Positions 2,432 through 46,537 of a stretch of DNA of 64,000 bases are shown here, in pieces. The translations under genes and the position numbers were made by a program. Within the stretch, counting starts at the first letter, position 1, and every line of letters starts with the position of its first letter. The stretch is from a virus, in IMG/VR virus record IMGVR_UViG_3300025674_000028, positions 1-64,000 of that record; one strand, given 5' to 3'. The notes under the pieces were generated by a model. That model saw nothing but the letters and a program-made list of their open reading frames with translations, ran no database searches and was not told the DNA's origin.

Positions 2432-3394
2432 TCAGATATCAGAGACGGGTGAAAACAACACGTGGTGCGCGGACGATGACCAGTCTTCCACCATCTTCTC
2501 CAATTGCGCAGCAGTGCGCAAAGCAATCTCGTGCTCGTCTGCACACGCAGCGGCAGCGCGAGAAGCTTTAACCAGTGGGTGCCCAGGGTTGATGATGAGT
2601 TGCCCGGTCATGCCATCCGCGAGCGCATCGGTATTGACTCGCATCATGGCTCTGGACGCCTTTATTAATTCATCGTTCAGCTGACCATGTTCATCAATGC
2701 TGTGACCGAGCAGAGCATTTGGATCAACGTTCAACTCACGCATCCAATGGTCGGCGGCACGCACGACAGCGTTGTGATTGGTGCAACTTTGCTTCACGAT
2801 CGTCAGGACTTCGCCAAGAGACAATGCTTCATTTTCCAGCGCGTCCAGTCCGACCGCCTGCAAATAAGCGTCTGCCCCGTCGCGCGCCATCTCCGCTTCA
2901 GACAGCTTTTGCAGCGACAGCTTATAAGCTTCGCGGGCAGAGCTCACCATGTCTTGCAGTTGCAGAACCTTGTCAATGTCCTGACCGTACTGACCGGAGT
3001 GTTCCAAGGCGACTGGAGCGCTTTGCTTGGCGCGTACATTGATGGCAGGCGACGTGCGCGTTGGAATCAAGTCATTCCATGACTGCTCATGAGCCTGCGC
3101 GGCGCTTTGCTTGCGACGCAAGGGCGTATCAGGTGCGCTCATACCAATCATCTGTGCGACCACTTCGGGTTTGGCGGTTTCCCAACGCTGTGACCACAGC
3201 CTTCCGCCGCTCTCTTTTGTATATGCTTTACTTTTGTCTTTCTCTAGTAACGCGATGTTGACTTTCGTACACACGCGAGAAATCTTTTCAAAGTTCAAGC
3301 CGTGCCCGCGCACTGCGTCTGCCACTGCGGCTGAAGGCGACTTGTCTGTCCCTACGGCGCGCTGCGCTGATTTTGCAAGAGAGTCGATATTCAC
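2432..3394 (-). CDS. Putative head-associated protein (start revised to GTG 3394)
   Basis: GGGAGG SD precedes GTG 3394 and removes the overlap with the opposite gene; many KxS motifs (LAKSA, FEKIS, RKQSA, AKQSA, LIKAS, LVKAS). Confidence 0.55.
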   Translation of the reverse strand: MNIDSLAKSAQRAVGTDKSPSAAVADAVRGHGLNFEKISRVCTKVNIALLEKDKSKAYTKESGGRLWSQRWETAKPEVVAQMIGMSAPDTPLRRKQSAAQAHEQSWNDLIPTRTSPAINVRAKQSAPVALEHSGQYGQDIDKVLQLQDMVSSAREAYKLSLQKLSEAEMARDGADAYLQAVGLDALENEALSLGEVLTIVKQSCTNHNAVVRAADHWMRELNVDPNALLGHSIDEHGQLNDELIKASRAMMRVNTDALADGMTGQLIINPGHPLVKASRAAAACADEHEIALRTAAQLEKMVEDWSSSAHHVLFSPVSDI

Positions 3395-3406
3395 AAGGAG
3401 CCTCCC

Positions 3407-4345
3407 ATGGACCACATCAGGTTTCAACTTGCCACAGGCAGTGTATGGATCACAACCGCTCAGGCGTGTGAACACATTAACGTCTCGCGCCAGGCTCTCA
3501 AGCAGTTGATTGACAGAGGTGTCATGCGTGCTCGTCGCCAAGACGACCGTAAGAACTATATCTTCCGTGACGACGTGTTTTATGTCTACCAGCAGCGTCA
3601 GCAGGCTCACGATGATAACAACCAAAGGGCCAGTTATGAAACACTGGTAGAACGTGGGATTTTTCCTGAATCGTTAGAGACCGCAAATGGATTTGATCTG
3701 ACGACGTGGGCTCAAAACAATCAATCGGAACTGCTGCGCTCCCGACTTGCGATCCCACCGACGCTGCCATCTTTAAATGAAGCTGGCGAAAAGGTAGATG
3801 AGCCCGTCACGCTGGCATTGTTGGCGCGACGCCTGCTGCGCGCCGAACAAGCCCTTAATACAGTTCTTGCGGGGCAATCGATCAACCCCATTCTATCGAA
3901 ACTCTCTCCGACAGACATCGCGTCGATCATACGTCGCACTAAGGCAGCGCTTCGACTTGGGCTTCACAGCGCGCAGGACATCACAAGCCTGTGCCAGCTA
4001 TATCTTCGACTAGACGCACACCACATGACGCAAATCAGTCAGTTTCCTGTGACGCACCCTGACATGGCTGCGGAAGTGTTAGAGGGCGGCGAAGTGGCGT
4101 ATCAGAGTTTGTACCGCATTGGTGATTACCTTATTGCTGCGGCTAGCCAATTGCCCGGCGCGGGACTGAAGGGCTCTGTGCACAATCGCACTCTGGACAT
4201 CGCCAGACAGGTAAAAAAAATCTTGTCGAAGCTGTGCTCTAATCAAGCAGGGATTGACTTCTTACTGCGTCAGGACGCCGGCCACTACTTGCCGGTCCCC
4301 TTAACTGAAATTGACCGATACATTTTGAATCAGGTCACGGGGTAA
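3407..4345 (+). CDS. Helix-turn-helix (MerR/excisionase-like) DNA-binding protein
   Basis: N-terminal WITTAQACEHINVSRQALKQLIDRG fits an HTH_17/MerR-type pattern; AAGGAG SD upstream. Confidence 0.65.
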   Translation: MDHIRFQLATGSVWITTAQACEHINVSRQALKQLIDRGVMRARRQDDRKNYIFRDDVFYVYQQRQQAHDDNNQRASYETLVERGIFPESLETANGFDLTTWAQNNQSELLRSRLAIPPTLPSLNEAGEKVDEPVTLALLARRLLRAEQALNTVLAGQSINPILSKLSPTDIASIIRRTKAALRLGLHSAQDITSLCQLYLRLDAHHMTQISQFPVTHPDMAAEVLEGGEVAYQSLYRIGDYLIAAASQLPGAGLKGSVHNRTLDIARQVKKILSKLCSNQAGIDFLLRQDAGHYLPVPLTEIDRYILNQVTG

Positions 4346-4400
4346 AAAAAAACCTCAACCCCCAGGACGGGGGGAGGTGCCTCCAGGACGGAGGCCTTTG
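4344..4400. terminator. Double-hairpin, probably bidirectional intrinsic terminator (repeat copy T1)
   Basis: Minus strand: GCCTCC-GTCCT-GGAGGC then CCTC-CCCCC-GTCCT-GGGGG-TT-GAGG-T9; lies between convergent genes. Confidence 0.8.
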
Positions 4401-4403
4401 ATC

Positions 4404-4652
4404 CTACAAGAGGCTTTTAGCCTCCCTGTAGGAGTTTGACAGCGCGCCATACAGCGCGCTGTCAAACCCGGCGCGAGCCGGGCTGACGACGACGTCGTAC
4501 ACGTAGTTGGTGGCCATCAGCCACCAACTACCGGAAAGGAGGCCCCACTGGACCTCCTTTCCGTCGACGAGGAGGATGACTCCATCCTCCCCGTCAAGGA
4601 CAAATTCGAAAACCTGGTCTCGCCAAAATTTTTTCTCAATGACCTTGCGCAT
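4404..4652 (-). CDS. Small accessory hypothetical protein (cassette ORF 1)
   Basis: 82 aa, GAGGAG SD, flanked by leader repeat A and terminator T1. Confidence 0.7.
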   Translation of the reverse strand: MRKVIEKKFWRDQVFEFVLDGEDGVILLVDGKEVQWGLLSGSWWLMATNYVYDVVVSPARAGFDSALYGALSNSYREAKSLL

Positions 4653-4843
4653 ATCATCTCCTCATGCGCTATGCAGTGCCTTTGTGTCAGGCGCACTGCT
4701 TGTTCCTGTGAGTTGCCAGCACAACCATTGTGCTTTCAACAACTCGGCGCCTTCTCGGCATGGAGGATCTGCTTCCTCTGGGCTCACCACTTGCGGTAGG
4801 TGACACCGGCCTAGTGAATCCATGCAGGTCTTCGCATGGAATT
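4647..4843 (-). repeat. Structured leader repeat, copy A
   Basis: Ungapped 197-nt match to 7645-7841, about 85% identical by manual count; serial hairpins with compensatory changes. Confidence 0.9.
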
Positions 4844-4976
4844 GGTCTGACGCATTTGTGGTCTTTGCCGCAGCATTTCCACTCTAGGCCATGCGTGGCC
4901 ATCCCAGAGAGCATTGCACTCTTCTGAGTCCCCCTACATCCGGGGTCGGGTTTGTCCGTCTTCACCCTCGGACTCC

Positions 4977-5363
4977 CTAGGAAAGGGAGTGCTGGCGGCA
5001 CTCCGAGATCAGACGAACAACAGCCAGGGCGAACCCTGGGTAGTTGCCGATTGTCTCGTAGTGCACGCCATACGAGGGTGCGCCGGTTTTGAAACCGAGC
5101 GCGACGGCTTTCGGCGTGGTGTCGTAGACGCACACGTCCCAGACCCAACCTTTTTCACGTTGGATCCGGATGACCGTGGCGCATCCGCTCTCGCCGGCCT
5201 GCCCAATGAGCCACGTGTTTTTCACGTTTCTCACTGGTTTGCACTTCCATCCACTCATGAACGGAGCGCTGGCCCGGTTGTCGAGCGTCCACCCTCCGCC
5301 CCAGAGCAAGCTGGGACAAAGTCGGTTCGACACTTTCACGCCGCGCAACATAGGCTTGAACAT
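4977..5363 (-). CDS. Accessory hypothetical protein
   Basis: 128 aa, strong AGGAGG SD, downstream of the GGACATAAG motif at 5507-5515. Confidence 0.7.
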   Translation of the reverse strand: MFKPMLRGVKVSNRLCPSLLWGGGWTLDNRASAPFMSGWKCKPVRNVKNTWLIGQAGESGCATVIRIQREKGWVWDVCVYDTTPKAVALGFKTGAPSYGVHYETIGNYPGFALAVVRLISECRQHSLS

Positions 5364-5506
5364 AGTTCACCTCCTATTGTCACACTGTGTTACCCCACCG
5401 GGGACAGTCTCGGCTGGAGACTGACTCGACAGCACACACTTTGCCGAAGTGTGTGACACGGGACCTGCACTTCTTTTGGAGAATAAAGAAGTATGAGATC
5501 ATAATA

Positions 5507-5515
5507 CTTATGTCC
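5507..5515 (-). promoter_or_regulatory. Putative phage promoter motif GGACATAAG
   Basis: Intergenic; context AAAATCGGCTATTTAC-GGACATAAG closely matches the 7876 copy. Confidence 0.65.
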
Positions 5516-5596
5516 GTAAATAGCCGATTTTGTTAGGGTTTTTGAGGTCATAATGTATGGCCATTTGCCGTGGTTTTGAAGGGCTGACGAGGGGGT

Positions 5597-5655
5597 AAAA
5601 AAAACGCTCAACCCCAGGACGGGGGAGCGGCCCAGCAGGACGCAGGGGCTTTTTG
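5597..5655. terminator. Double-hairpin terminator (repeat copy T2)
   Basis: Minus strand CGCTC-CCCC-GTCCT-GGGG-TT-GAGCG-T8 preceded by a second GTCCT-loop hairpin; homologous to T1. Confidence 0.8.
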
Positions 5656-5661
5656 ACTCGA

Positions 5662-6462
5662 TCACGTCATCGGTCCGATGTCGTGATCATAGATTTCGGC
5701 GCCGTCGAGGTGAGCGCCGTCTAGGTCGGCACCTACGAGTAGAGCGCCGGTGAGGTCTGCACGGCGGAGGATGGCGCCTCTAAGGATTGCATAGGGAAGG
5801 AAAGAGTTCGACAAGTCGGCGCCCGTGAGGTCAGCGCCGGTGAGGTCGGCGCATGTGAGGTGGGCGCCGTCGAGGTCGGCGCAGCGCAGGTCAGCCCCCG
5901 TGAGGTTTGCGTTGGAGAGGTTTGCCCCCGCCCGCTTACCTTCTAGGGCGAGATCAGCGCCGCACAGGTCGGCGCAGCGCAGGTCGGCGCAGCGCAGGTC
6001 GGCGCCGGTGAGCTTTGCCTCGCGCAGGTCGGCGCAGCGCAGGTCGGCGCCGGTGAGGTCGGCGCCAGTGAGATTGGCGCCGTCGAGGATGGCGCTAGTG
6101 AGGTTGGCGCCGGTGAGGTTGGCGTCGGTGAAGTCGGCTTTGTCGAACACTTCGACCTCCGTGAGGATGGCGCCGGTGAGGTTGGCGCCCCTGAGGTCGA
6201 CCTCTGTGAAGATGGCGCCGGTGAGGTTGGCGCCGGTGAGGTTGGCGCACCGGAGATAAGAGCCGATGAGAACGGCGTTTGTAAGGTTGGCGCCGGTGAG
6301 GTTGGCGAGAGCGAGGTTGACGCCGGTGAGGATAGCGCTGGTGAGGTTGGCGCCCGTGAGGTCGGCGCCCGTGAGGTCGGCGCCGGTGAAGTCGGCGCCG
6401 GTAAAGTCGATGCCGGCCAGGTGCTGGCCGGCGCGGTCGACACCTTGAAAATTTGTGCGCAT
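5662..6462 (-). CDS. Pentapeptide repeat protein
   Basis: A(D/N)LTG and ADLRC repeats span almost the whole 266 aa; 15-nt DNA periodicity; AAGGAG SD. Confidence 0.95.
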
Positions 6463-6550
6463 ATCATCTCCTTATGCGCTATGCAACACCTTTGTGGCAG
6501 GCGTGTCGCTTACTCCCATGGGTTGCCAGCACAGCTATTGTGCGGGCAAC
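6457..6550 (-). repeat. Structured leader repeat, copy B (gene-proximal three hairpins only)
   Basis: Matches the gene-proximal ~94 nt of copies A and C. Confidence 0.85.
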
Positions 6551-6553
6551 GGC

Positions 6554-6578
6554 AAAAAAATATACGCAGCCGGCGTAT
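6554..6578 (-). terminator. Intrinsic terminator
   Basis: ATACGC-CGGCT-GCGTAT-A-T7 on the minus strand, downstream of ORF 6649-7650. Confidence 0.65.
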
Positions 6579-6648
6579 GCGGGTCACTCTCTTCCGGAGA
6601 ATGACAACGGGCGTATGTTTAACGACCTCGCCAGGTCGGGGCCGCGGC

Positions 6649-7650
6649 TCAATCCGTATGGATCACAACCGTGACCCGGTCGAGCCCGTGGACGCTCGAC
6701 CGGGTCGCGACAAGTTTCCCGTCGTGCAGCAGGCGCTGCACGCGGGAATCCCCGTCCACGCGGAAGGTTCCCCAGGCCCCGAGGCCCCAAACCTCAAGGG
6801 CCTCGAGGGTGTGTAGGGGGCTCCGGCGCATGATGCGCCAGAGGAGCGACGGAGTTGGAGAGGAGGCGAAATCCTCCATCTCCATCTCCGTCATCGGAGC
6901 GTCTTCTGGGAAATAGTAAGAGGGAGGGTTTTTTGCCCCCCATCCCCTCACGAGTTCCACTAACCGACGTTTTCTGTCGGCTCCGATCTCCTGCCCCTCT
7001 GCCCCCGCTAGGAGGAACGGCAGACGCTCACAGACTGCCTGCCGTTCGAGGCCCAAAGCGCGGGCCTCCTTTTCGGCAGAGAGCCGCTTTGTTTCCAAAG
7101 CGGCTCTCTGCCGAGCCTCCCTCTCGCGGCGCCTTAGACGAGGCCACACCTCGCCTAAGGAGAATTGAGCGCTGAAGACTCTCCCTTGGCGCTCTCGAAA
7201 CGCCCGCCACCACTCATGGTGGTATGGGTCACGCCGGAACGAGTCATCGTCATCGACCCATTCCCCGTAACTGCATGAGAGGTCGTCGGCCGCCTCCACT
7301 GCCTCAAAGAGGCAGTGGTACTCTTGCTCCAGCGTCTGCTGAAGCAAGAGTACGTAGGCGCTCCGCATGGAGCGCCAAGGGAAACCTGTCGGGCGGGCGG
7401 CGAGGTCTCCGTCCGCCCACTCGGCCAGGGCGCGATGCGCCTCGCACGTCTGCCGGCCCCACCCTGTGAGGCCGGAGATGTACGCGAGGGTGACCTCGCC
7501 AGCGCCGCCCGCTACGGCGCTGTTGTAGAGAGACTGCAACGCCTTGTCGCGCTCCAGCCCCTCCTCCCGACCCCCCGCGATGAAGCGGGCCTTTTCGATG
7601 AAGAGGTTGGTGTTGTTGGCGGCGTTGTTGGTGGGGTCCATCTTGCTCAT
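6649..7650 (-). CDS. Accessory hypothetical protein (start revised to ATG 7650)
   Basis: GGAG SD and the same position relative to the leader repeat as the starts at 4652 and 6462; GC-rich coding style. Confidence 0.7.
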   Translation of the reverse strand: MSKMDPTNNAANNTNLFIEKARFIAGGREEGLERDKALQSLYNSAVAGGAGEVTLAYISGLTGWGRQTCEAHRALAEWADGDLAARPTGFPWRSMRSAYVLLLQQTLEQEYHCLFEAVEAADDLSCSYGEWVDDDDSFRRDPYHHEWWRAFRERQGRVFSAQFSLGEVWPRLRRREREARQRAALETKRLSAEKEARALGLERQAVCERLPFLLAGAEGQEIGADRKRRLVELVRGWGAKNPPSYYFPEDAPMTEMEMEDFASSPTPSLLWRIMRRSPLHTLEALEVWGLGAWGTFRVDGDSRVQRLLHDGKLVATRSSVHGLDRVTVVIHTD

Positions 7651-7841
7651 GTCATCTCCATATGAGCAATGCAACACCTTTGTATCAGGCGTGTCGCTTG
7701 TACCTGTGAGTTGCCAGCACAACCATTGTGCTTCCAACAACTCGGTGCCTTCTCGGCATGGAGGATCTGCTCCCTCTAGGCTCACCACTTGAAGCAGGTG
7801 ACGCTTGCCCAGTGAATCCATGCAGGTCTTTGCGTGGAATT
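7645..7841 (-). repeat. Structured leader repeat, copy C
   Basis: 197-nt homologue of 4647-4843; begins about 35 nt downstream of the GGACATAAG at 7876-7884. Confidence 0.9.
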
Positions 7842-7875
7842 TGACCGTCACAATGGAGGTATGGCGGTCAACAGT

Positions 7876-7884
7876 CTTATGTCC
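7876..7884 (-). promoter_or_regulatory. Putative phage promoter motif GGACATAAG
   Basis: AT-rich intergenic region; followed by ACTG-TTGACCGC, like the plus-strand copies. Confidence 0.7.
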
Positions 7885-7941
7885 GTATATAGCTAATTTT
7901 ACACGGTTTTTTTCCTGTCTTTATAAGGCTTAAAAACGCTC

Positions 7942-7969
7942 TTTTGGACATAAGACCATTGACCGCACA
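7942..7969 (+). promoter_or_regulatory. Putative phage promoter (28-bp exact repeat of 35169-35196)
   Basis: TTTTGGACATAAGACCATTGACCGCACA, divergent from the 7876 copy. Confidence 0.75.
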
Positions 7970-8004
7970 TGTCGTGCTGTCCTACCAAAAACCAAGGAGA
8001 AGAT

Positions 8005-8766
8005 ATGAACAACGTGGAAGGTGTGACCGTGAGCGATGAGGTAGCCAGCGCAATCATGGGCGCTCAGCCAAGCCAGTCGATGGCGTTTCATGCCAGTCAG
8101 GTCTACCAGCTGATAACAGACCCTGTGAAAATCACAGTCAACAACGGTCCAGACCAGCCGGGCCATATAGAGACGGTGCCACAAATCTCCCTGCTCCAGG
8201 AGATTTACAAAAACAGCGATGAGGTCCTTGCCAGAGTGCGCGAAGGTGTGGGGATTGTCTGCGAGCGACAAGACAAAAACAGCGAGGCAATCTGCAAGGA
8301 AGTGAAGAAGTACTGTGACACTGTGACGCAGACGCTGGCGGCGAACCAAGAGAAGCTGCAGGAAAATCAGACGGCAGGACACAACATCGTCTGCGGGAAG
8401 ATCCACGCCGCAGAAGAGCGCGTGTCGCACTATGCTCGCATGGGCATGGTGGCAAGCTGCGCAGCGGCAGTGGCAGCGCTTGCGGGCATGTTCTTCAGTC
8501 AGCGGTCTCCGTCTGCTCACGCCCCGCATTTCGCGCCACAGATGCACGATCAGCAGATGCACGCACAGCGAGCAAGGGAGCGGGCGCTGGCAGACAAGGT
8601 GGACAAGCTCACTGAGACGGTCAACCAACTGTCACAGTACGCGCAGGCGCAGCAGCCTGTCTTTGCTGCGCTTCAGCATCAGATGATTCGCCCAACCACT
8701 GTGTCGGCGGTCAACATCCCAACGCCTGCCGCAGCACAGACGGGCGACGCACCTTTGTTTGGCTAA
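8005..8766 (+). CDS. Gln-rich coiled-coil protein with one hydrophobic segment (putative early protein)
   Basis: AAGGAG SD before ATG 8005; MGMVASCAAAVAALAGMFF segment. Confidence 0.7.
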   Translation: MNNVEGVTVSDEVASAIMGAQPSQSMAFHASQVYQLITDPVKITVNNGPDQPGHIETVPQISLLQEIYKNSDEVLARVREGVGIVCERQDKNSEAICKEVKKYCDTVTQTLAANQEKLQENQTAGHNIVCGKIHAAEERVSHYARMGMVASCAAAVAALAGMFFSQRSPSAHAPHFAPQMHDQQMHAQRARERALADKVDKLTETVNQLSQYAQAQQPVFAALQHQMIRPTTVSAVNIPTPAAAQTGDAPLFG

Positions 8767-10676
8767 CTGTTGGCAAACTCTGCCAGCTCCATGTTTCGCC
8801 ACATCTTGGCTGACATGAGGTAGAGCAGGCTGTGAAAGGCGTCGTCTGGGTCTGTGTGGTTGTACTGCATCTGACGCAGCTTTGGTGAGCGATCGGCGTA
8901 GATGGTGAGGATATCCTGGGCGAAGCCTCCATCTAAGCGTGGAGGCCCGTCCATGATTTCCCATGAGGGCAACACCACGCGTCGATTTTTTAGCTGATTA
9001 AAGATCTTGGCCATCCACCGAGTCTTGTTGCATTGAAACTGGTTGCTTGTTGGATCCCAACTCATGATGGCTGATTGATTGGTGTATCGCATAGGAATGA
9101 AGCGACGCATGCCGTCTCGAATTCTTTCGCGCACGCCATCGATCATGCCCCAGCCAAAACCTGCATCGCAAAAGCAGATGTCAACGTGATTGGCTTCCAT
9201 GAGGTACGAAATCTCATCCCACAGGAACCGGGGGTCCGCTTCAACGCCCATGTACCTGCGCATAAAGAACACTTGGAGGACACTGCCCACCTCGGGGACG
9301 TGGTTGACGTACCCCATGCTCACGACAGTAAACGCGCCGTCGCCTGTACCCTCACCCCAGTCAATCCCCATGAAGACATCCCACGCAGGGTCAGCAAGCA
9401 CCTCTTTTGGCGCAAGGCGCTCTAGGGACGTGATGCCTGGGTGGCACAGCCTGATCAGCTCCTCTCGGCTTAGCGGCTTCTTTCCGCTGTCCCACGACAC
9501 GCCAAAGATCTCATTCATCTTTGACGCTTCAGACGCTGTGGGGTCATTGACATCTTGGTAGAAAGCCAGCCAACGCTCAGCGAAGCGGTCCCTGTCATAA
9601 ATTGATGTGTATGGCATCAAGCAGCGGCTGAGATGAAATCCTTCAAAGTCGCTGTCTAAGGCTCCCGTCCGTACCCAGTTGCAATGCTTGGACAAGGGAT
9701 TGATGGCGCGTCCGCATTTGATGCACAGCAGCCCCTTACGGCCAATCATGCGATCTACTTCATTGGGATTTTGGGGCGGAAAGTTAGGGTGGTTGCATCG
9801 GTCGCAAGGAATCAGCCACAGGTTCTTAGTTGAGCGCTTAGACCAGATTTGCTCAATGGGATTGTCAAAGGTCAGTGGCGTGCCACTGAATAGCGTGATG
9901 GCACCAAAGGGCAACTCACTGTTGTTGAGCGTGGCGGTGATGACGGGAATGTTGGCCATGACGAAATCCTGAATCTCATCAATGGCGAGCACGTCGGCCG
10001 CGATGCCGCGAACACGGTTGGCGTTTAGGTGCGCCGAGCGCATGACGATGCGGCTGTTGTTGCGTTTGAGTCGTTTGAAGAAGCGGTTGTAGTTGACGAA
10101 CCCACCGACAAACTGCTTGAGCCTCGGTGAGATGCGCAGCGTGTTGTCGACGCGCTCATCAGCAAACTCCTGCATGTTAAGTCCTGCGCTTGTCACGTAC
10201 AGCGCGCAGATGTTTGAGAGCATGCTGATGAACGTCCACAGCTTATTGCCAAGGCCAGTGGATTTTTCGGTCTGACGTGCGGCCTTGACCAGCGTCTTCC
10301 TTGCCAGCCGCGTAGACGCCTCGTCACCTCCTAAAGCGACAATACGCTTCTTTGTGTATTCGCTGTCGTAGATGGCCTTTTGCCACGGTCGCAGGTGCAG
10401 GCTGATGCTCTTTCCCATCGGGTTGCTGCGATCTGGCGCGTCAAAGTTAATCCGGTACTGCACAAACTCGCTTGGCAGCTCCGGCTGCGTAAACGCTCCG
10501 GGTCTCAGGCGTTTGGATGCGCGCTCCTGTGCCCACTGTACAGCACGGACATAAGCCTCTTGCTCGTCCCGCACATCGCTGCCCCGATCAAAGGGTACGC
10601 CTGTGCGCGGATCTATCACTTTTGTCTCTACGCCTACGGGTATAGAGCTCTGTACATTAACCAATGGAGAAGTCAT
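8763..10676 (-). CDS. terL: Terminase large subunit (lambda GpA-like, with Zn-ribbon)
   Basis: LRPWQ adenine-binding motif, ARQTEKST Walker A, LAIDEIQD Walker B, SGTP coupling motif, CxxC pairs, GIDWG and PDDAFHS nuclease motifs. Confidence 0.92.
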   Translation of the reverse strand: MTSPLVNVQSSIPVGVETKVIDPRTGVPFDRGSDVRDEQEAYVRAVQWAQERASKRLRPGAFTQPELPSEFVQYRINFDAPDRSNPMGKSISLHLRPWQKAIYDSEYTKKRIVALGGDEASTRLARKTLVKAARQTEKSTGLGNKLWTFISMLSNICALYVTSAGLNMQEFADERVDNTLRISPRLKQFVGGFVNYNRFFKRLKRNNSRIVMRSAHLNANRVRGIAADVLAIDEIQDFVMANIPVITATLNNSELPFGAITLFSGTPLTFDNPIEQIWSKRSTKNLWLIPCDRCNHPNFPPQNPNEVDRMIGRKGLLCIKCGRAINPLSKHCNWVRTGALDSDFEGFHLSRCLMPYTSIYDRDRFAERWLAFYQDVNDPTASEASKMNEIFGVSWDSGKKPLSREELIRLCHPGITSLERLAPKEVLADPAWDVFMGIDWGEGTGDGAFTVVSMGYVNHVPEVGSVLQVFFMRRYMGVEADPRFLWDEISYLMEANHVDICFCDAGFGWGMIDGVRERIRDGMRRFIPMRYTNQSAIMSWDPTSNQFQCNKTRWMAKIFNQLKNRRVVLPSWEIMDGPPRLDGGFAQDILTIYADRSPKLRQMQYNHTDPDDAFHSLLYLMSAKMWRNMELAEFANS

Positions 10677-24025: not shown

Positions 24026-27000
24026 CTAGTAGTCCCCTTGCTTGTTACGCGCCCCTCCTGCCTTTGATGCTCTGTTAAACTCAGCCGCATACGTCAACGC
24101 AGGGATTGGGTGCGTACTATGATAATTTGAAGTAGCGCCTGTTTGCGCTGCGTCTGTCAAGACTTGGCGGAGGTTGTTGTAGTTAAAGCGCGCTAAGAAG
24201 TCCTCCCGATACTCTCTCGGCGCGACGTCCACACCTCGCAGCAACGGCCGCACTGTCAGGTTTTTAAATGTCTTGTGAAGTTTCTTTGCTTGTGCTTCGG
24301 GAATCTTTTGACCGGGCAGCAGGTCTGCACCGCCAGGATCTGCAACCTCGACAGTGCCAGTCATGGCACGAACCACCCCTTCAACATTTCGCCGCAGCAC
24401 GCCCTTTTCCGCAAACAAGTTGCCAAGACGATTTGTCAGGTAGCCGCGAACCTTCTCCATGTCACCCGTGGCGTCTAAGATTTCCTTTGGGTTTGCCAGG
24501 CCGTCAGTCAAAACGTCGCCCTTCCCTATGCGTCTCCCCTTTTTGTAAAACCTCGGCGCATCGTACCCATCAGGAGCGTTGCGATTGCCGGGTAAAAAGA
24601 TGGTAGGGTTGGGGGCGTTGCCGGCTGTCTGTATCTTCAAATCCCAGCCGCCTTTTTCGCGATTTCTCTTTATGGTGTCGACCTTACCTGCGACTGGAGA
24701 CACCACTGCTTTTTGACCGCCCATGGTTCCTGGCATACGAAGCAACGCGCTTGCTTCTTGGAACAGGTTTTTCGCAGTGCTCGTGTCCCCTGGCTCGTAA
24801 ACGCCGCCAGCGTGGAAGGTAGACAGCGTAAGCTGAGTGGATCTTTCACCGATGGCCTGCGAAGCCAAGATGCCGAAGTTGTTGCCGATAGGCAGCGTCT
24901 TGCCGTTGGGTAATGCACCGACGCACTTCTGACACACACCTTCTTCAGCTTCACAGGTGGCAGGCGAGCGTACCTTAATCTTGCCTTGCCCCTTTTGGCG
25001 CATGAAAGACAGCACATTGCCGTCTACCAGTCTGTTGCGGTTCCAGCTTTTGTTGCCACTCTTCACGGAGGACGCCAAAAAACGTCCTTCTAAGTCGTCT
25101 TCCGGACGGTTGATGTCCACGTCAACGCCAGATTTGGTTCCACAATCTTCGACGGTGACTGTCATGTCCATCGCTGTGTTAATCAGCTGCTTTGTAAGAT
25201 AGCCAGGATCTTGAACCTCAATAACTTTTGACACTGTACCCATTCGAGCGCCGTGCAAAGTACCCCAGTAGCCCGTAGCGTCCAGTCCCTCGGTGTAGCT
25301 CTTCATAATCGGAGTGCCGACAACATCTCCCCGGCCATCCAGCACAGCGCCGGCGCCCATCATGACCTGTTGAAGCTGGACGGGCTTGACGCGAGCACCT
25401 GAAAAGGTCAACTCCGCGTTGACGTTGCTTCGCTGAGTTGGCTGACTTGTGATTCGACCCTTGAGGACATTCATGCCTCGTTTGTTGAGCTTACCTAGGA
25501 CGTCGTCAAAAATGCCGCGGATTGCACGCTGGTGCTCGTTCTGAGTGCGACTTGTTGCCTTTGCAATCTGCAACTTCTTCAGCAACGTCTTTTCAGCCGC
25601 CTCACGTTCTTTTTTTAGAACTGGCTTGAAGTCTTCCATTAAAAGAGTCGTGCCCGTCAACGTTGCTTGCTCAGCTCCAAGCGTACGAAGCCTGTTGGCG
25701 GCTCCACCGAAGGCCTCTGGCGTCTTTACCGCAATGTGAGTCGTCAGCTTTTTAATGTCCTTCTTTGACAGTCCGATGTCGCCATAATTCTGTGAAACGA
25801 TGCCGGCTGATTGGAGAGAATCAAGCGTCATGCCCGCAGGCAGCGCCTGGTTTACGAGCGATCGTCCAAGAGTTGTTCTCTGGCCGCCTACAGTAATCAA
25901 GTCATTGACGTCGATCTTGTCTTCAATAAACGCTTTGCGAGCGTCACCAACCTTCGAAAAACTGCCGACAGGCTTCTTTTGCACGGGATTCCGAGTGATC
26001 CTGTTCAATCCAAGAATCGCCTCGTGACTCAACGTGTATGCCAGGTCTCCTGACGCTAGGCTAAAGAGGTTTGCTTGCGGTCTGAGCTTTTCCTTTAACT
26101 CTCTGTTAGCTGCTTTTGAGACTGGAGCGAACACCGCCATCGTGTCGCCGTCATTGTCAGCACCAAACCCTCCGTATACCAACGGGTTCAATTGTATGGT
26201 CTTCTCATCCGTCAGGCGAGTACGAAAGCCCTGGAAGCCGTACTTGTGCAACACGGGATCTCGCTTAAGAGCGACCCAATTAGTTTTGACAGTTCGTTCA
26301 AGAATGCGGTCAACTTCCTTGTCTTTCTTGCCGTCTGATGCGTATTCGCCAAGTGCTTTATTGAATCGTCTGAGCTTGTCCCTACCTACAGTTGTCTTCC
26401 ATTGCGGGTGGCTTTTCTTGTATTCGGCTTCAAGCATTGGCCGATAGACTTTGACTGCCAGATTTCTCGGCAGTGCAATCTCGTCGATGTCCAAATCGCC
26501 ATTTGGCCCAATGACAGTGCGGCCGCTGAGAACTTGACGTCGCTGCACCAGCGTCTTTTTCAACAGAGATTGCTTGAGATCTCCGACCTCCCTGCCGTTT
26601 GTGACGGGGCGACGCCCTGTGATTGTGCCGACGATGCCTTGATACTCAGCGCCGCTTAAAGGAGCACTACCTTCGGTCTGCATAAGCTGCAGCATGCCAG
26701 CGTACAAACCCGACTCAAGCTCTGAAATGACCTTCTGCGGCAGTTTGCGCTTCTTTGCGTCCTTTAACTGCTCATCAATCATGGCAAGGTCACGATACAG
26801 GTAGTTCACGTCCCCAACGACAAAATCTCCGGAGTCCTTGTCGATTTTGAAGTCACGCATATTGGCAGGCAGTACAAGCACCTGCTTACGCATAAATGCT
26901 TCAGCTGGAGACAGTTTGTTGCGCTCAAGCATGTCTATAGTTTTGATTGTCCGGTAAGCGCTCGAACGCTTTGAGGCCTTCTTGTCATTCTTGGCGACGT

Positions 27001-30000
27001 CGTAGGCTTGCTTACGCACGCTTTTGAGGTCGACATTTTTGAGCATGTACTCTACGGCAGCAGCACCATATATCTCCTTGTCGCCGTCTTTGACTCCCTC
27101 AATGCCGGCCATAATGTTTTCGAACTGCTTCTTTTTCAGACCAAGTACGTCCCGGATTCCATTCTCGTACACTGGATTTGGGATGTTTTGTGAGAGCTCA
27201 AATCGAGACCAACGCTGACCTCCGCGACCTCCTGTCGCTTTGGGATCAAACAATCCACCCTTGTCTGGAGACATCGTACGTGCCGAAACAGTCCGAGTAG
27301 GACGCGCGATGACATTGTCCTGACCGTTGGTCTTGGACATAATCAGGACGTCACGGTCTGTTAAGGGCTTCATTCGAAGCTCGCTATGTTTAGCACTTCG
27401 CTCTACATCAATGCCCGCAGCTTTAAGGTAATTTTGGAACCGCACAAAAGCTCCGGGTACTCTACCTGGAGGCAAAGGCCGGCCGGCTGCCAGCGCATCC
27501 CACACTTCCGGGCGGTCTTCAGAACTGTAGAGCTGGGCAGAACGTAAAAACTCGCGTGCGTCCTGGGCAAGAAGACCGTAGGTTCCCAACTCACCGAGGC
27601 TTTGTGCGCCGTCTTTACCCTTACTGGCCAGTCCGGACTCTTGGAATGTGCCAACTCCGCGACCTTTGCTTTTGTGGTCAACTTGATGCTTAGCCTTGAG
27701 TATGTACTGATTCCCGACCCCGATGCTTTTAAGAGTCTTGCCTGATCGAGGGTCATACAAGTCCTCCCCGTCAGCGACGCCGGCCTCTTTCAGCTTTTGA
27801 GCAACAAAGTCCCAGTTCGACTCGTATTTGTAGTTCTCAACAATTTCAGGTGCGCCTGCTTTCTTTGCGATCTTACCTAAAAACGTCTCAAAGTTCTGGC
27901 TGGGGTTGATGCGTCCAGTCACCGCCGCAGGGTTATACAGAATCTCCAGGTGCTCGCCTGCACTGTTACGCGGCATTTCATCGTCAGGGACAATCTCAGC
28001 GATGGTTGCTTTGTTGGCGTGTCGGCCATAAACCTTGTCGCCGACTTCCATAGGCTCGACAGTCTTTACGTAGACTTTAGCGCCGATGACGTTGCCATCG
28101 CGGTCACGTTCTTTTGCAACGTCTACAACCTCGCCTCCATGACTGTGATCCCATCGTTTTTCAAAAAAACGACGCGCCCTCTTTGCGCCTCTACGGTCTT
28201 GAGTCTTGTAAAGCCCAACCTGCTTAGTCCGCTCCAACATCTCTTTGCCAGCAAGAGCGTCTGACTGATGTCCTACGAGGTAAAGGTCTCCAGGCTCTAT
28301 GATCGTACCGACTTTGATGACTCCGTCGTCATCCAGCTTCGTATCGATGTCCGTTGGAAGTGGCGTACTGACTGTCTTGCGCCAAAACTTCTTACCAAGA
28401 CGCATCGTATCGCTGGCGGCGCCTTCCTCATACATATGAAGGCTTGCCATTTTGTCAGCGGCTGATTGGCTGACGGTGATTGAATCCTCAAAGGTGGATG
28501 TATGGTAAGGCAAATATGCCGTTTTCAGGTTCACGCCCATTGCCAGTACGCCGTCCTTTGTAAACGTACTGTCTGCCAACAGGTCACCCTTTTTGATTTC
28601 ATCGCCGACCTTGACGGTCGGGGTAGAGTCGAGGGGGGCGCCACCGCCAAGCATCAGGTTTTTCGGCAGAGCAATTTGAACTGTCTTCCGCTTACCCTTT
28701 GGTAAAATCTCGATGTATCTCTCGCCCTTATCCTTATCCACAATGCGCTTGACGACACCGTCGTAAGCGGAGCGTACAGCGCCTGCCTCTTCAGCAAGTA
28801 ACGTCTCTGTGGAGTGAGTGACGCCGTCAAATTTGGTTTGCACTAACGGGGCTTCGCGGCGCAGCAGAGGCACAGATTGAGTCGTTTGCTTGTCGCTGTA
28901 GCCGATACGGCCGCCCTGAATGCTGTTTACAAAGGGAATGAGCGCACTGTTGGTGTCGAAGAGGCTTGCACTGTCTTTGAGGTAGTATGCGACCTCTGAC
29001 GGCTTTACACGAACAATCTCGCCATCTCTCCAACCCTTGACCATGCCTTGAGCATCGACTTTAGGCTTAAACTTGCCTCCGTCCTTGGTCCACTGATCAA
29101 ATGCTCCAATGACTTTGCCGACCAGCTTATCTGGACTGACGTCAACGCTGCGCCCTGATGGTGACAACATGTCGGCCATCAGCTTGCTGTGGCCGATATT
29201 TCGATCCGTCACGGATGAAGTATCTTTTACGATCCTCGTGCGAATTGGCACATTTAGGATGACGCCGGCCCGACCCGACTCCGGCGTGTGGACAGGATCA
29301 AGAAATCCAACACTGCCAGGATTAAGTAACTTGGCGTCTTTTGGAATGGCCATCTCCGCGCCAATTGCGCCCTCGCCCATGATGGTCGTCGAGGTGGCTT
29401 GTCCAAACGCGTCTAAAGGCGTCGTACTTGTATCTGTACGTTGCACCATGGACGTTGACGCTCGTCCTTTGATGTTTTTCTCAAAAGGACTGCCAATCAA
29501 CTGATCAACTTTGATGGGAGTTTTGTTGTCAGTATATCGACGCAGACGTGATTCGATGCCCCTGACATACTTTCTAACAGTGGACTCACGTCCCACTGAC
29601 TCCGCGAGCAAGTCAGCCGGACTGTAAATTTTCTTCAGTGCAATCGACTCACGGTCATCCTCGGGTTCGCCGTTTGCGACTTGTTGAAGTCTGGAAAAAC
29701 TGGCAAGCAACGTCTTTGCGCTTATGCGGTCTGACTTAGTGCCAAGTGTGACTGCCGTGATGGATGGGTCGACGCGGCTTGTGTTGAACTGATCTTTGAG
29801 TTGAGTAATGACTGCATCAAACTCGATGTCGTCTTTTTGCCTTTTGTACCGGGGGAAGACCTGACCGTACAGGTTTCGCATGGACTTCTCAAAACGCTCA
29901 TCTGTACTCTGACTTATGATTGCCTTAGCGGTCTTTTTGCCTACGGCCTTTTCTAAGTCTTCGTTTTTAGCGCCGAGCAGCTTAGCGATGTCCCAGACCG

Positions 30001-30664
30001 GGATTGATTTGCTGCTCTTGTACAGCAGCTTAAAGTCAGGATCGTCACCCGTGCGGTCAAACAAGACTTTAAAGCTGCGCACGTTGCTTGATGTCGCCGG
30101 GTCAACGTTAAACTCAGTGACGATGTCGCCTGACTCGTTCGTGCGCGTAAATACACCAGGCTTACGACGCCACTGATGCATCATGAAGCGTTTTTTCCCG
30201 TCGACAATAAACGATCGGTCAAAGACCGGCGTCGGAATCTGACCAAGCTGCACTCTCTTGCTGCTGACCACCTTGCCTGTCTTGGTATCAACCACTTCAA
30301 AGTCACCAAAGGCGCGGACGCCATATGTCGACTTCACGCGGCCCTTTGGCTCTCGCAGCGTTTGATAGATTTTTTTGTAGTCTCTAGGGTCTGGGATGTC
30401 TGTGTGTTGGATGTCGCCCTTTAGTCTAAGACTGTACCTCCCGCCTTCAATCGGTTGATCGTAGGTCCGCTGCATCGCTTGCACGACCTCTTTCACCACA
30501 GTCTCTGCGGTCTCTGCGGGGTCAGGCAAGCTGCGAAAGGTTTCTAGAAATTCTTGACGCTGAGGGCTGACCGCTGTCGCTTCTGACAGCTTCTCTACAA
30601 ATGACTGCTCTTCCGCATCCCACAATACTACGTCGCTCTCAGGCGTATCTGGAAAGTCAGTCAT
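24026..30664 (-). CDS. rpoBC: DNA-directed RNA polymerase, beta-beta' single-chain fusion (start revised to ATG 30664)
   Basis: Beta motifs: FIVDG..RRKPGVF, PVHTPESG, LIPF..QSVPL, FEDSITVS, GDKVYGRHANK, YILKAKH, GAQSLGE. Beta' motifs follow in frame: GGLFD, RDPVLH, GADNDGD, HGAR..GYLT, RSPATC..CQKC, QAIGERSTQLTLSTFHAGG. GAGG SD before 30664. Confidence 0.96.
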   Translation of the reverse strand: MTDFPDTPESDVVLWDAEEQSFVEKLSEATAVSPQRQEFLETFRSLPDPAETAETVVKEVVQAMQRTYDQPIEGGRYSLRLKGDIQHTDIPDPRDYKKIYQTLREPKGRVKSTYGVRAFGDFEVVDTKTGKVVSSKRVQLGQIPTPVFDRSFIVDGKKRFMMHQWRRKPGVFTRTNESGDIVTEFNVDPATSSNVRSFKVLFDRTGDDPDFKLLYKSSKSIPVWDIAKLLGAKNEDLEKAVGKKTAKAIISQSTDERFEKSMRNLYGQVFPRYKRQKDDIEFDAVITQLKDQFNTSRVDPSITAVTLGTKSDRISAKTLLASFSRLQQVANGEPEDDRESIALKKIYSPADLLAESVGRESTVRKYVRGIESRLRRYTDNKTPIKVDQLIGSPFEKNIKGRASTSMVQRTDTSTTPLDAFGQATSTTIMGEGAIGAEMAIPKDAKLLNPGSVGFLDPVHTPESGRAGVILNVPIRTRIVKDTSSVTDRNIGHSKLMADMLSPSGRSVDVSPDKLVGKVIGAFDQWTKDGGKFKPKVDAQGMVKGWRDGEIVRVKPSEVAYYLKDSASLFDTNSALIPFVNSIQGGRIGYSDKQTTQSVPLLRREAPLVQTKFDGVTHSTETLLAEEAGAVRSAYDGVVKRIVDKDKGERYIEILPKGKRKTVQIALPKNLMLGGGAPLDSTPTVKVGDEIKKGDLLADSTFTKDGVLAMGVNLKTAYLPYHTSTFEDSITVSQSAADKMASLHMYEEGAASDTMRLGKKFWRKTVSTPLPTDIDTKLDDDGVIKVGTIIEPGDLYLVGHQSDALAGKEMLERTKQVGLYKTQDRRGAKRARRFFEKRWDHSHGGEVVDVAKERDRDGNVIGAKVYVKTVEPMEVGDKVYGRHANKATIAEIVPDDEMPRNSAGEHLEILYNPAAVTGRINPSQNFETFLGKIAKKAGAPEIVENYKYESNWDFVAQKLKEAGVADGEDLYDPRSGKTLKSIGVGNQYILKAKHQVDHKSKGRGVGTFQESGLASKGKDGAQSLGELGTYGLLAQDAREFLRSAQLYSSEDRPEVWDALAAGRPLPPGRVPGAFVRFQNYLKAAGIDVERSAKHSELRMKPLTDRDVLIMSKTNGQDNVIARPTRTVSARTMSPDKGGLFDPKATGGRGGQRWSRFELSQNIPNPVYENGIRDVLGLKKKQFENIMAGIEGVKDGDKEIYGAAAVEYMLKNVDLKSVRKQAYDVAKNDKKASKRSSAYRTIKTIDMLERNKLSPAEAFMRKQVLVLPANMRDFKIDKDSGDFVVGDVNYLYRDLAMIDEQLKDAKKRKLPQKVISELESGLYAGMLQLMQTEGSAPLSGAEYQGIVGTITGRRPVTNGREVGDLKQSLLKKTLVQRRQVLSGRTVIGPNGDLDIDEIALPRNLAVKVYRPMLEAEYKKSHPQWKTTVGRDKLRRFNKALGEYASDGKKDKEVDRILERTVKTNWVALKRDPVLHKYGFQGFRTRLTDEKTIQLNPLVYGGFGADNDGDTMAVFAPVSKAANRELKEKLRPQANLFSLASGDLAYTLSHEAILGLNRITRNPVQKKPVGSFSKVGDARKAFIEDKIDVNDLITVGGQRTTLGRSLVNQALPAGMTLDSLQSAGIVSQNYGDIGLSKKDIKKLTTHIAVKTPEAFGGAANRLRTLGAEQATLTGTTLLMEDFKPVLKKEREAAEKTLLKKLQIAKATSRTQNEHQRAIRGIFDDVLGKLNKRGMNVLKGRITSQPTQRSNVNAELTFSGARVKPVQLQQVMMGAGAVLDGRGDVVGTPIMKSYTEGLDATGYWGTLHGARMGTVSKVIEVQDPGYLTKQLINTAMDMTVTVEDCGTKSGVDVDINRPEDDLEGRFLASSVKSGNKSWNRNRLVDGNVLSFMRQKGQGKIKVRSPATCEAEEGVCQKCVGALPNGKTLPIGNNFGILASQAIGERSTQLTLSTFHAGGVYEPGDTSTAKNLFQEASALLRMPGTMGGQKAVVSPVAGKVDTIKRNREKGGWDLKIQTAGNAPNPTIFLPGNRNAPDGYDAPRFYKKGRRIGKGDVLTDGLANPKEILDATGDMEKVRGYLTNRLGNLFAEKGVLRRNVEGVVRAMTGTVEVADPGGADLLPGQKIPEAQAKKLHKTFKNLTVRPLLRGVDVAPREYREDFLARFNYNNLRQVLTDAAQTGATSNYHSTHPIPALTYAAEFNRASKAGGARNKQGDY

Positions 30665-30677
30665 GTTGTCCTCTTTG

Positions 30678-35168: not shown

Positions 35169-35196
35169 TTTTGGACATAAGACCATTGACCGCACA
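35169..35196 (+). promoter_or_regulatory. Putative phage promoter heading the replication block
   Basis: 28-bp exact repeat of 7942-7969, located at the strand switch. Confidence 0.75.
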
Positions 35197-35240
35197 CGCC
35201 GACCTGCGTGTGCACTTTGTAAACCACAGAGGAGAAGACA

Positions 35241-46369: not shown

Positions 46370-46537
46370 GTGGAAAAGAACAGCGTCGTGCAGAAGAACA
46401 AGCCGCAAGTATTGCGGCTTGGACATAAGACCAGCGCCAGACGCCCTGAGCCTCGCTGCCCTGTATGCGGTAAAGACGCAATGCAAGTAGGTCAGACTTT
46501 GAAATGTCCAGACCACGGCTCTAGGCCCTGGGAGTGA
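46370..46537 (+). CDS. Small Zn-finger protein
   Basis: AGGAGG SD before GTG 46370; CPVCG...CPDHG. Confidence 0.65.
   Translation: MEKNSVVQKNKPQVLRLGHKTSARRPEPRCPVCGKDAMQVGQTLKCPDHGSRPWE

Follow-up and report, generated by a model that had tools for sequence, protein, structure and literature searches.

An open question is how large lytic phages acquire orphan genes and bring them to immediate expression; the promoter/stem-loop elements (PeSLs) of T4-type phages, dependent on host sigma70 promoters, have been the main worked example so far. PeSLs are described as short sigma70 early promoters with a stem-loop that serve the host RNA polymerase (RNAP) and number about 50 per T4-type genome (PMC2839356), and both PeSL recombination and mini-circles were demonstrated experimentally (PMC2839356, PMC4122927). 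Here we describe a small accessory-gene island at positions 4339-7912 (minus strand) of the linear IMG/VR virus record IMGVR_UViG_3300025674_000028, in which three unrelated open reading frames (ORFs A, B and C) start at the same position of a shared, structured messenger RNA (mRNA) leader and two of them end in a shared double-hairpin element, a putative terminator. The stretch analysed (the window) comprises the first 64 kb (64,000 nucleotides, nt) of this 73,229-bp record, whose completeness CheckV estimates at 40%.

The original prediction, made from the letters of the window alone, had likened this array to PeSLs. Like PeSLs, the island carries repeated signals that end in the Shine-Dalgarno (SD) sequence and start codon of orphan genes, lies in a variable part of the genome of a large lytic phage, includes terminator stem-loops and has copies associated with ORFans; in both, indels may fall at module borders. 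In its defining parts the analogy nevertheless did not hold up, because the repeat contains no sigma70 promoter plus stem-loop and because three leader copies and two twin terminators in 73,229 bp (a lower bound, the record being 40% complete) stand against about 50 elements per T4-type genome. Moreover, and again unlike PeSLs, the repeat is a 95-210-nt transcribed multi-hairpin 5′ untranslated region (UTR) that compensatory changes have preserved, a phage-specific promoter-like motif is located outside the leader, and recombination is hinted at by contig joints only. A single overlap, of the plain hairpin T1 with a weak sigma70-like site that scored at chance level, might represent a PeSL-type combination of promoter and stem-loop; the twin terminators carry no promoter.

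Morons are stand-alone promoter-ORF-terminator units of atypical composition, defined by their insertion relative to related phages. The island resembles them in that accessory ORFs of atypical GC content at third codon positions (GC3), with promoter-like and terminator signals of their own, lie between packaging genes, and differs from them in that its genes share a common structured leader. Unlike for integron cassettes, whose folded attC-like sites are the substrate of a site-specific recombinase, there is no tyrosine integrase (PF00589) match in the 73-kb record, which is incomplete. Hairpins at ribosome-binding sites (RBSs) are known from the MS2-type coat-protein operator and from T4 early transcripts; here, too, the start codon lies in the 3′ arm of a hairpin at the translation start and could gate initiation, whereas the SD sequence lies in the loop and the hairpin is the last element of a much longer conserved leader common to unrelated genes. 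Phage 201phi2-1 offers another parallel with sRNA005, a giant-phage small RNA derived from a 5′ UTR and conserved upstream of a tail gene (PMC11512511): both are conserved structured 5′ UTRs in large phages with their own RNAP, although there the UTRs are orthologous and belong to one conserved gene in different phages, whereas here a paralogous UTR sits on unrelated genes within one phage. The double-hairpin element resembles RF01690, the Bacillaceae-1 RNA motif, which Weinberg et al. tabulated in 2010 (Table 1; PMC2864571), in having two adjacent hairpins with C-RUCCU-G loops, all four hairpins of the island carrying GUCCU. It departs from this family in that the full-length alignments score 25.2 bits (terminator A) and 18.6 bits (terminator B), below the gathering score of 35, in that its first hairpin lacks the outer stem, in its occurrence in a phage rather than in Bacillaceae, and in the U-tract of the second hairpin, a putative intrinsic terminator. 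The island is a real feature of a known kind, accessory genes framed by regulatory modules, to which it brings a structured leader absent from the catalogues and a terminator of distinctive form.

A shared leader with a conserved RNA structure

The ATGs of ORFs A, B and C (4652, 6462 and 7650) occupy one column of the leader alignment, as had been predicted, and the products of these three ORFs and of ORF D, a fourth member of the array that lacks the shared leader, are unrelated (lowest pairwise BLASTP E-value 1.4). The elements of the island and its border, with the evidence for each in brackets, are:

4339-4395, minus strand: putative twin-hairpin terminator A (repeat family D5, fold, loop scan, sub-threshold RF01690 match)
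4404-4652, minus strand: ORF A, 82 amino acids (aa), orphan (ORF list, GC by codon position)
4653-4862, minus strand: leader A, long form (repeats, BLAST, alignment, consensus fold)
4977-5363, minus strand: ORF D, 128 aa, orphan, whose own 5′ UTR differs from the shared leader (unmatched in Pfam and PHROG)
5507-5543, minus strand: promoter-like module P_D, GGACATAAG (5515-5507) plus 28 nt upstream in common with P_C (repeat family D7, motif count)
5597-5649, minus strand: putative twin-hairpin terminator B (repeat family D5, loop scan, fold, sub-threshold RF01690 match)
5662-6462, minus strand: ORF B, 266 aa, pentapeptide-repeat protein (PF00805)
6463-6550, minus strand: leader B, short form with hairpins Pa, Pb and Pc only (repeats, BLAST, covariance model R1)
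6552-6587, minus strand: T1, plain hairpin (6578-6562) plus U7, after ORF C (consensus scan, minimum free energy (MFE) fold)
6649-7650, minus strand: ORF C, 333 aa, orphan, a real protein (two homologues)
7651-7860, minus strand: leader C, long form (repeats, BLAST, alignment, consensus fold)
7876-7912, minus strand: promoter-like module P_C, GGACATAAG (7884-7876) plus the common upstream 28 nt (repeat family D7)
7942-7979, plus strand: divergent promoter-like module of the gene starting near 8005 (repeat family D6)

Leaders A and C are alike over 219 nt at 84-86% identity (repeat family D2 in the repeat search, 4644-4862 versus 7642-7860, 84% ungapped), and leader B has the 3′ 95 nt only, at 80-83% identity to A and C (repeat family D3, 4646-4740, 6456-6550 and 7644-7738, 80-81%). 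A BLAST search of the rest of the genome, proposed with the original prediction as a check, placed leader C at exactly three positions of the whole 73,229-bp record (100, 86 and 83% identity), and R1, a covariance model, found the same three places and no others in the window. The longest identical runs between leader copies measure 31, 17 and 15 nt, and every leader and terminator copy of the record lies within 3.6 kb. Homology had been said to halt at the coding boundaries; its end is indeed sharp, but it lies 7 nt inside the coding sequence (ATGCGCA in A and B, ATGAGCA in C), because AUG and codon 2 form the 3′ arm of hairpin Pc.

A consensus fold of leaders A and C (RNAalifold) comprises 60 pairs, all of which are kept in both copies (60/60), nine of them by compensatory changes on both sides. 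None of 500 column shuffles matched these values, and slid controls, in which partners were shifted by 1-3 columns, gave 30-43% paired cells and 0-1 compensatory pairs. For the 3′ core present in all three copies, a conservative structure of hairpins Pa, Pb and Pc (4740-4712, 4699-4673 and 4669-4647 in leader A) was paired in 66/66 cells, with 4 of its 22 pairs compensatory, three in Pb and one in Pc, a result matched by 11 of 500 shuffles. The stem of Pa is invariant and forms a palindrome of the 6-3-6 type. The stem of Pb covaries, three of its pairs being flipped, and carries a 13-nt loop, GCCUGNNACAAAG, with 11 of 13 nt invariant. Pc consists of a 6-bp stem and an 11-nt loop with the SD sequence (GGAG), its 3′ arm being AUG plus codon 2; it reads GCGCAU-(11 nt)-AUGCGC in A and B and GCUCAU...AUGAGC in C, a compensated pair that involves codon 2. 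The two homologues of ORF C, P0043 and P0044, also begin with Met-Ser, as the AUGAGC arm requires. When both strands of the 73-kb record were scanned for this design (a 6-bp stem whose 3′ arm runs from the ATG, and an 8-14-nt loop holding an SD sequence), only these three starts were found; shuffles averaged 0.3 and never exceeded 2.

The consensus fold is better on the sense strand (-69.55 kcal/mol and nine compensatory pairs versus -65.65 kcal/mol and five on the other strand), and 10 of the 60 leader pairs are G-U in at least one copy. Comparison with Rfam 15 gave no match at gathering score in the window and none overlapping the leaders at E-values up to 10. These results identify the leader as an RNA structure of the sense strand that selection maintains and that is uncatalogued in Rfam, and such selection points to a cis-regulatory function first and a recombination substrate second. 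The reading frame of the ATG extends upstream without a stop through leader C (a 400-aa ORF from GTG 7851) and over 57 codons in leader A, and is closed by a stop in leader B. The 35 differences between leaders A and C over 210 nt fall 12/10/13 by codon position of this frame, and its codon differences comprise 8 synonymous and 19 non-synonymous changes; given the lack of codon periodicity, this ratio and the stop in B, the leader is not coding.

Copy B had been called a mosaic of A and C. The pattern behind this is real, as among the 16 sites at which A and C differ, B is like C at eight, like A at seven and like neither at one, but it does not show recombination: the pattern fits a star tree of three copies, with the Pb stem altered on the A lineage and the Pc stem on the C lineage.

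Flanking signals and cargo genes

As predicted, ORFs A and B end in a homologous double-hairpin element (repeat family D5, 4339-4394 versus 5591-5646, 73% identity), which starts at their stop codons and is made up of two hairpins and a run of 8-9 U. Element A comprises hairpin 1 (4395-4379), hairpin 2 (4378-4352) and U9 (4351-4343), and element B hairpin 1 (5649-5630), hairpin 2 (5629-5605) and U8 (5604-5597); all four hairpins present the C-GUCCU-G loop on different stems. We read this twin GUCCU-loop element as a 3′ module that would combine a putative intrinsic terminator with an extra 3′ hairpin. The final codons and stop of the convergent plus-strand ORF 3407-4345 lie inside terminator A, and a short stretch of them is also copied at terminator B. 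This ORF, which has an N-terminal HTH_17 domain and weak matches to excisionase and small-terminase PHROGs, overlaps another long ORF, 2432-3625 (minus strand), by 219 nt. The T1 hairpin after ORF C is present in the MFE structure, although its 49-nt stretch (-8.3 kcal/mol) is no stabler than shuffles (z +0.56), and it is overlapped by a weak sigma70-like sequence, GTGACC-17-TATATT (6587-6559, 9/12 matches). A sigma70 consensus scan of 3000-9000 yielded four sites versus 1.8 expected and none inside the leaders. Between ORF D and leader A there is no terminator.

The motif GGACATAAG occurs eight times in the window versus 0.25 expected, and five of these copies are intergenic and directed at the downstream gene: the two in the array and those at 7946, at 35173, where it heads replication genes, and at 46421, where it precedes a nuclease gene. 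Its extended consensus is GGACATAAGACcaTTGACCGC. The two array copies belong to repeat family D7 (5507-5543 versus 7876-7912, 37 nt, 78%), and from the end of the P_C motif to the start of leader C homology there are 16 nt. Repeat family D6 (7942-7979 versus 35169-35206, both on the plus strand and 89% identical) contains the promoter-like motif GGACATAAGACCATTGACCGCAC. We take GGACATAAG to be a putative phage-specific promoter of an early or middle class, and its distribution suggests that this promoter class is common to the island and to early or middle genes. The proposal of ready-made expression signals for the phage's own RNAP has gained support in that the frames are reused around unrelated accessory ORFs, the phage encodes an RNAP and a promoter-like motif heads the array.

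All four island ORFs have a GC3 of 0.75-0.82, compared to 0.57-0.67 in five comparison genes of known or core function (large terminase (TerL), RNAP, DNA polymerase, a helix-turn-helix gene and ORF 17501) and 0.685 in a sixth, adjacent gene at 8005; they are compositionally foreign. ORF B belongs to Pfam family PF00805 (E 3.3e-74) and contains a 15-nt periodic repeat (repeat family D1). No Pfam or PHROG family was matched by ORFs A, C and D. Among billions of proteins, ORF C has two homologues and no more, P0043 (81%, 320 aa; on a 1.2-kb contig) and P0044 (N-terminal ~50 residues), and ORF A has none except itself. Matches to the Atlas in a protein-function search all scored under 0.8, and the phage collection held nothing resembling the region except pentapeptide repeats and nothing resembling ORF C. 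Single-sequence AlphaFold2 modelling gave a mean predicted local distance difference test score (pLDDT) of 63.9 for ORF A, and the model of ORF C (pLDDT 46) was too poor for a fold search.

The mRNA of ORF A (4338-4652) folds at -182.5 kcal/mol versus -115.4 ± 5.3 kcal/mol in shuffles (z -12.8), and the body of this ORF (4404-4600) consists of six back-to-back near-perfect hairpins with 13-15-bp stems ahead of the terminator; its GC content by codon position (0.59/0.36/0.75) is coding-like. Hairpins 1 and 2 resemble a tandem duplicate, at the peptide level too (DGEDGVILL / DGKEVQWGLL), and the body has the densest GGAGG/CCTCC of the genome, 8 per 300 nt versus ~0.6 expected from the genome mean. 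A match to gyrA RNA inside ORF A (28.5 bits, gathering score 45) was put down to generic hairpins. ORF C contains perfect hairpins of 13 bp (6673-6706), 19 bp (7073-7114) and 10 bp (7296-7318), which may reflect an RNA function or a palindrome-perfecting mutation bias. The peptides under the 13-bp and 19-bp hairpins (the latter AALETKRLSAE) are kept in P0043, and that under the third differs (CLFEAVEA vs RLFEPMEK). In all, the genome has 10 perfect hairpins whose stems reach at least 9 bp, and 7 lie between 4434 and 7318; among 1,463 folding windows, 70 of them in the island, the island accounts for 20 of the 36 with a GC-corrected MFE z below -2. No other part of the genome is as structured as the island. 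ORF B, the most GC-rich of the four ORFs, is no structural outlier.

The phage and its metagenomic relatives

The record stems from an uncultivated phage of a jumbo lineage from freshwater/aquatic metagenomes that has its own multisubunit-type RNAP; the habitat is that of the run labels ('freshwater' or 'aquatic') of runs holding at least 26% of sampled words. PHROG/Pfam scans identified TerL at 8763-10676 (phrog_675, E 1e-33). The RNAP is fused into a single 2261-aa ORF (24026-30811, minus strand) with several jumbo-phage RNAP beta/beta′ PHROGs along its length, and its nearest isolates in the phage collection are Vibrio phages D69, D181 and D148 at ~28-29% identity (maximum 29%). Other genes recognised by PHROG/Pfam encode a family-A-like DNA polymerase, a primase, a PD-(D/E)XK nuclease and a baseplate wedge protein. 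There are no transfer RNA genes, and the HIP1 octamer, which would have hinted at a cyanobacterial host, has 0 copies; integrase and resolvase families (PF00589, PF00239) gave 0 matches in the 73-kb record, which is 40% complete, and controls responded. Several 6-bp palindromes are avoided across the window (CCCGGG at 0.04, ACTAGT at 0.07 and ATTAAT at 0.09 of expectation), as may befit a phage evading restriction, and the palindromes TGCGCA and GACGTC are enriched more than two-fold.

An alignment of TerL led to 80 IMG/VR loci, the top one (L123) at 43% identity, and to 10 loci in metagenome-assembled genomes (MAGs) at ~30%; TerL as a single-protein query found no IMG/VR relatives. Records with TerL relatives in IMG/VR and MAGs measure ~170-190 kb. 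Closer TerL homologues (P0005-P0007), on contigs of 72-113 kb, reach 55-61% identity, and some TerL homologues (P0014, P0025, P0029 and P0042) are ~1000 aa long, with intein/homing-endonuclease domains (PF14528, PF14890). L123 has no comparable region or repeats, and the ORF C alignment led to no locus in IMG/VR. Patterns from three leader parts had 0, 1 and 1 matches in IMG/VR and a fourth pattern had 0; the two matches, L004 and L203, were dismissed as chance, R1 giving at most 12 bits. In metagenomes, a leader-pattern scan returned at least 118 loci, all alike only over the 22-nt pattern (blastn), and a pattern of the terminator core had 0 matches in IMG/VR.

To look at the population, contigs (not reads) of three DNA runs (X3, X4 and X5) and one RNA run were placed at 80% likeness; no meaning was given to portions of the window that X4, X5 and X12 left uncovered. 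Contigs of X3 and X4 match the terminator B core (5598-5651) and then continue into more than 200 nt of unlike sequence on both sides, and these flanks are nearly identical between the two runs, which indicates at least one further copy of the core beside other sequence. A variant of leader A with at least 16 substitutions in 4812-4913, alignable to 4963, is present in one contig each of X3, X4 and X5. The variant contig then joins 6563-6583, the T1 hairpin, so that the joint 4963|6563, with 21 letters on that side, is found in 3/3 DNA runs; it skips 1599 nt, exactly leader B, ORF B, terminator B, P_D and ORF D. Contig joints in general call for caution, as they often stem from repeats or other organisms, and those that fall within the pentapeptide repeats, such as 5892|6350, were discounted as artefacts of the repeats. 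A T1 hairpin beside a long leader recurs in contigs of X3, X4 and X5. One X3 contig follows leader C as far as 7757 and, after five differing letters, continues along leader A from 4765; it is best read as a further leader paralogue. In the same run, the bins of leader A, terminator B and leader B stand out by a 2-3 fold higher depth. Contigs of the RNA library match 4496-5211 exactly, one of them spanning 4705-5076 from ORF D into leader A, and the library also contains a 92%-identical variant of the 3′ part of the leader; DNA carry-over being possible, these contigs are a weak pointer to transcription.

Interpretation of the island

We consider it probable that duplicated regulatory modules, namely the promoter motif, the leader and the terminator, give the accessory genes a fixed RBS fold and shared control. 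The island would then form two likely transcription units built from such modules, one running from P_C through the long leader, ORF C, T1, the short leader and ORF B to a twin terminator, and the other from P_D through ORF D, the long leader and ORF A to a twin terminator. As a portable element, the leader would act in cis on the initiation of translation and on mRNA stability, lock the RBS in one local fold irrespective of the ORF behind it and place the genes under one post-transcriptional regime. A presentation of the RBS that does not depend on the ORF would account both for the extension of the module to codon 2 and for its association with GC-rich ORFs laden with hairpins. The modules would have spread by local duplication and then diverged under selection for structure, with the gain or loss of cassettes at module borders as a likely by-product. 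Promoter activity and transcript ends, as well as every function proposed here, we infer from the sequence.

Several observations weigh against this explanation. R1 finds no leader in the 80 TerL-anchored IMG/VR loci, in 8 further loci or in the full records of 5 relatives, of which 3 are complete. The strand preference of the leader consensus fold is modest, and leader C alone folds no better than shuffles (z -1.0; leader A, z -3.4). Three paralogues from one genome mean that the covariation reflects very few independent events, and the structures tested were derived from the same sequences. The putative promoter and terminator roles are read from motifs, and the suggested role of the leader as an 'insulator' is an argument from design.

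It is possible, though we find it rather doubtful, that the island acts as the active gene-capture or shuffling platform of the original prediction, with the copies as portable homology through which recombination swaps, deletes or circularises cassettes. ORFs A and B have homology on both sides, the leader 5′ and the twin terminator 3′, and the ORFs are orphans with foreign GC3; the terminator core with unlike flanks (X3, X4), the leader A variant (X3, X4, X5), the leader copy 7757|4765 of X3, part C and part A, the joint 4963|6563 in 3/3 DNA runs and the 2-3 fold raised depth of the module in X3 would all fit. Support for the proposal is partial, however: the joints are single contigs with 21 letters on one side and 80% likeness, the mosaic pattern of B is uninformative with three sequences, and the copies, with 80-86% identity and identical runs no longer than 31, 17 and 15 nt, look like old paralogues under structural selection rather than recently formed substrates for recombination. 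Copy number is low as well, at three in 73 kb, and no integrase or resolvase was found in the record. That the repeats are neutral leftovers of one or two segmental duplications, with coding parts replaced or decayed and flanks without function, is very improbable: all copies do lie within 3.6 kb, and the terminator homology passes the U-tract into the last codons of 3407-4345, which suggests block copying, yet with 16-20% of positions diverged, none of the 60 pairs has been lost and nine have been compensated where neutral decay would break stems, the four terminator hairpins keep their loop on different stems, and homology stops sharply at +7 of three unrelated ORFs.

A switchable riboregulator, in which the leader is an operator or aptamer through which a trans-acting phage protein, a small RNA or a ligand switches translation of all three genes on or off, strikes us as unlikely. 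The Pb loop, conserved at 11/13 nt while its stem covaries, is typical of a recognition site, and the start codon lies in a stem, as in RNA-phage coat-protein operators. A speculative route to switching is provided by an anti-SD sequence of the long form, CCUCC at about leader position 105, which is held in a GAGGA/UCCUC hairpin and could pair with the SD sequence; in C, forcing this anti-SD:SD conformer costs just 3.6 kcal/mol relative to the MFE. The UCCU of the terminator loops is also complementary to AGGA of the SD loop. However, the alternative conformer lies at +9.2 kcal/mol in A, B is without the anti-SD half, 3-4 bp of loop-loop complementarity is weak, no candidate RNA-binding regulator was identified and no known riboswitch or RNA family matched, even at E-values up to 10. 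Least probable of all, to the point of being hardly tenable, is that the leader acts at the DNA or protein level, as operator palindromes or by encoding a leader peptide or N-terminal extension. The invariant 6-3-6 type palindrome of Pa and the open frame in A and C would suit such a role, but compensatory sequence changes in Pb and Pc misfit a sequence-specific operator, G-U pairs are strand-specific, the 12/10/13 distribution, the 8 synonymous versus 19 non-synonymous changes and the stop in B speak against coding, and the ORF C homologues start at the same Met-Ser.

We return to duplicated modules that would provide a fixed RBS fold and shared control. A bolder extension, which we put forward as unlikely, is that the expression frame of promoter motif, leader and twin GUCCU terminator domesticates foreign genes, that whole cassettes are gained and lost at its borders in freshwater populations, as the joint 4963|6563 and the additional copies of terminator and leader would suggest, and that the hairpin load of ORFs A and C is itself functional rather than accidental, perhaps as a decoy or sponge RNA, as an array for processing or as a shield against nucleases. 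The scope of the finding is one genome. The leader would be a new RNA motif for catalogues, and the GUCCU twin hairpin links the island to an Rfam motif of unknown function. If the leader is indeed a context-independent RBS module, it would explain how GC-rich, hairpin-laden foreign ORFs are translated, and the RBS insulators engineered in synthetic biology would have a natural counterpart in it. To the question of how large lytic phages express newly acquired orphan genes at once, the island represents a different solution in a phage with its own RNAP, consisting of a long folded mRNA leader and a distinctive terminator.

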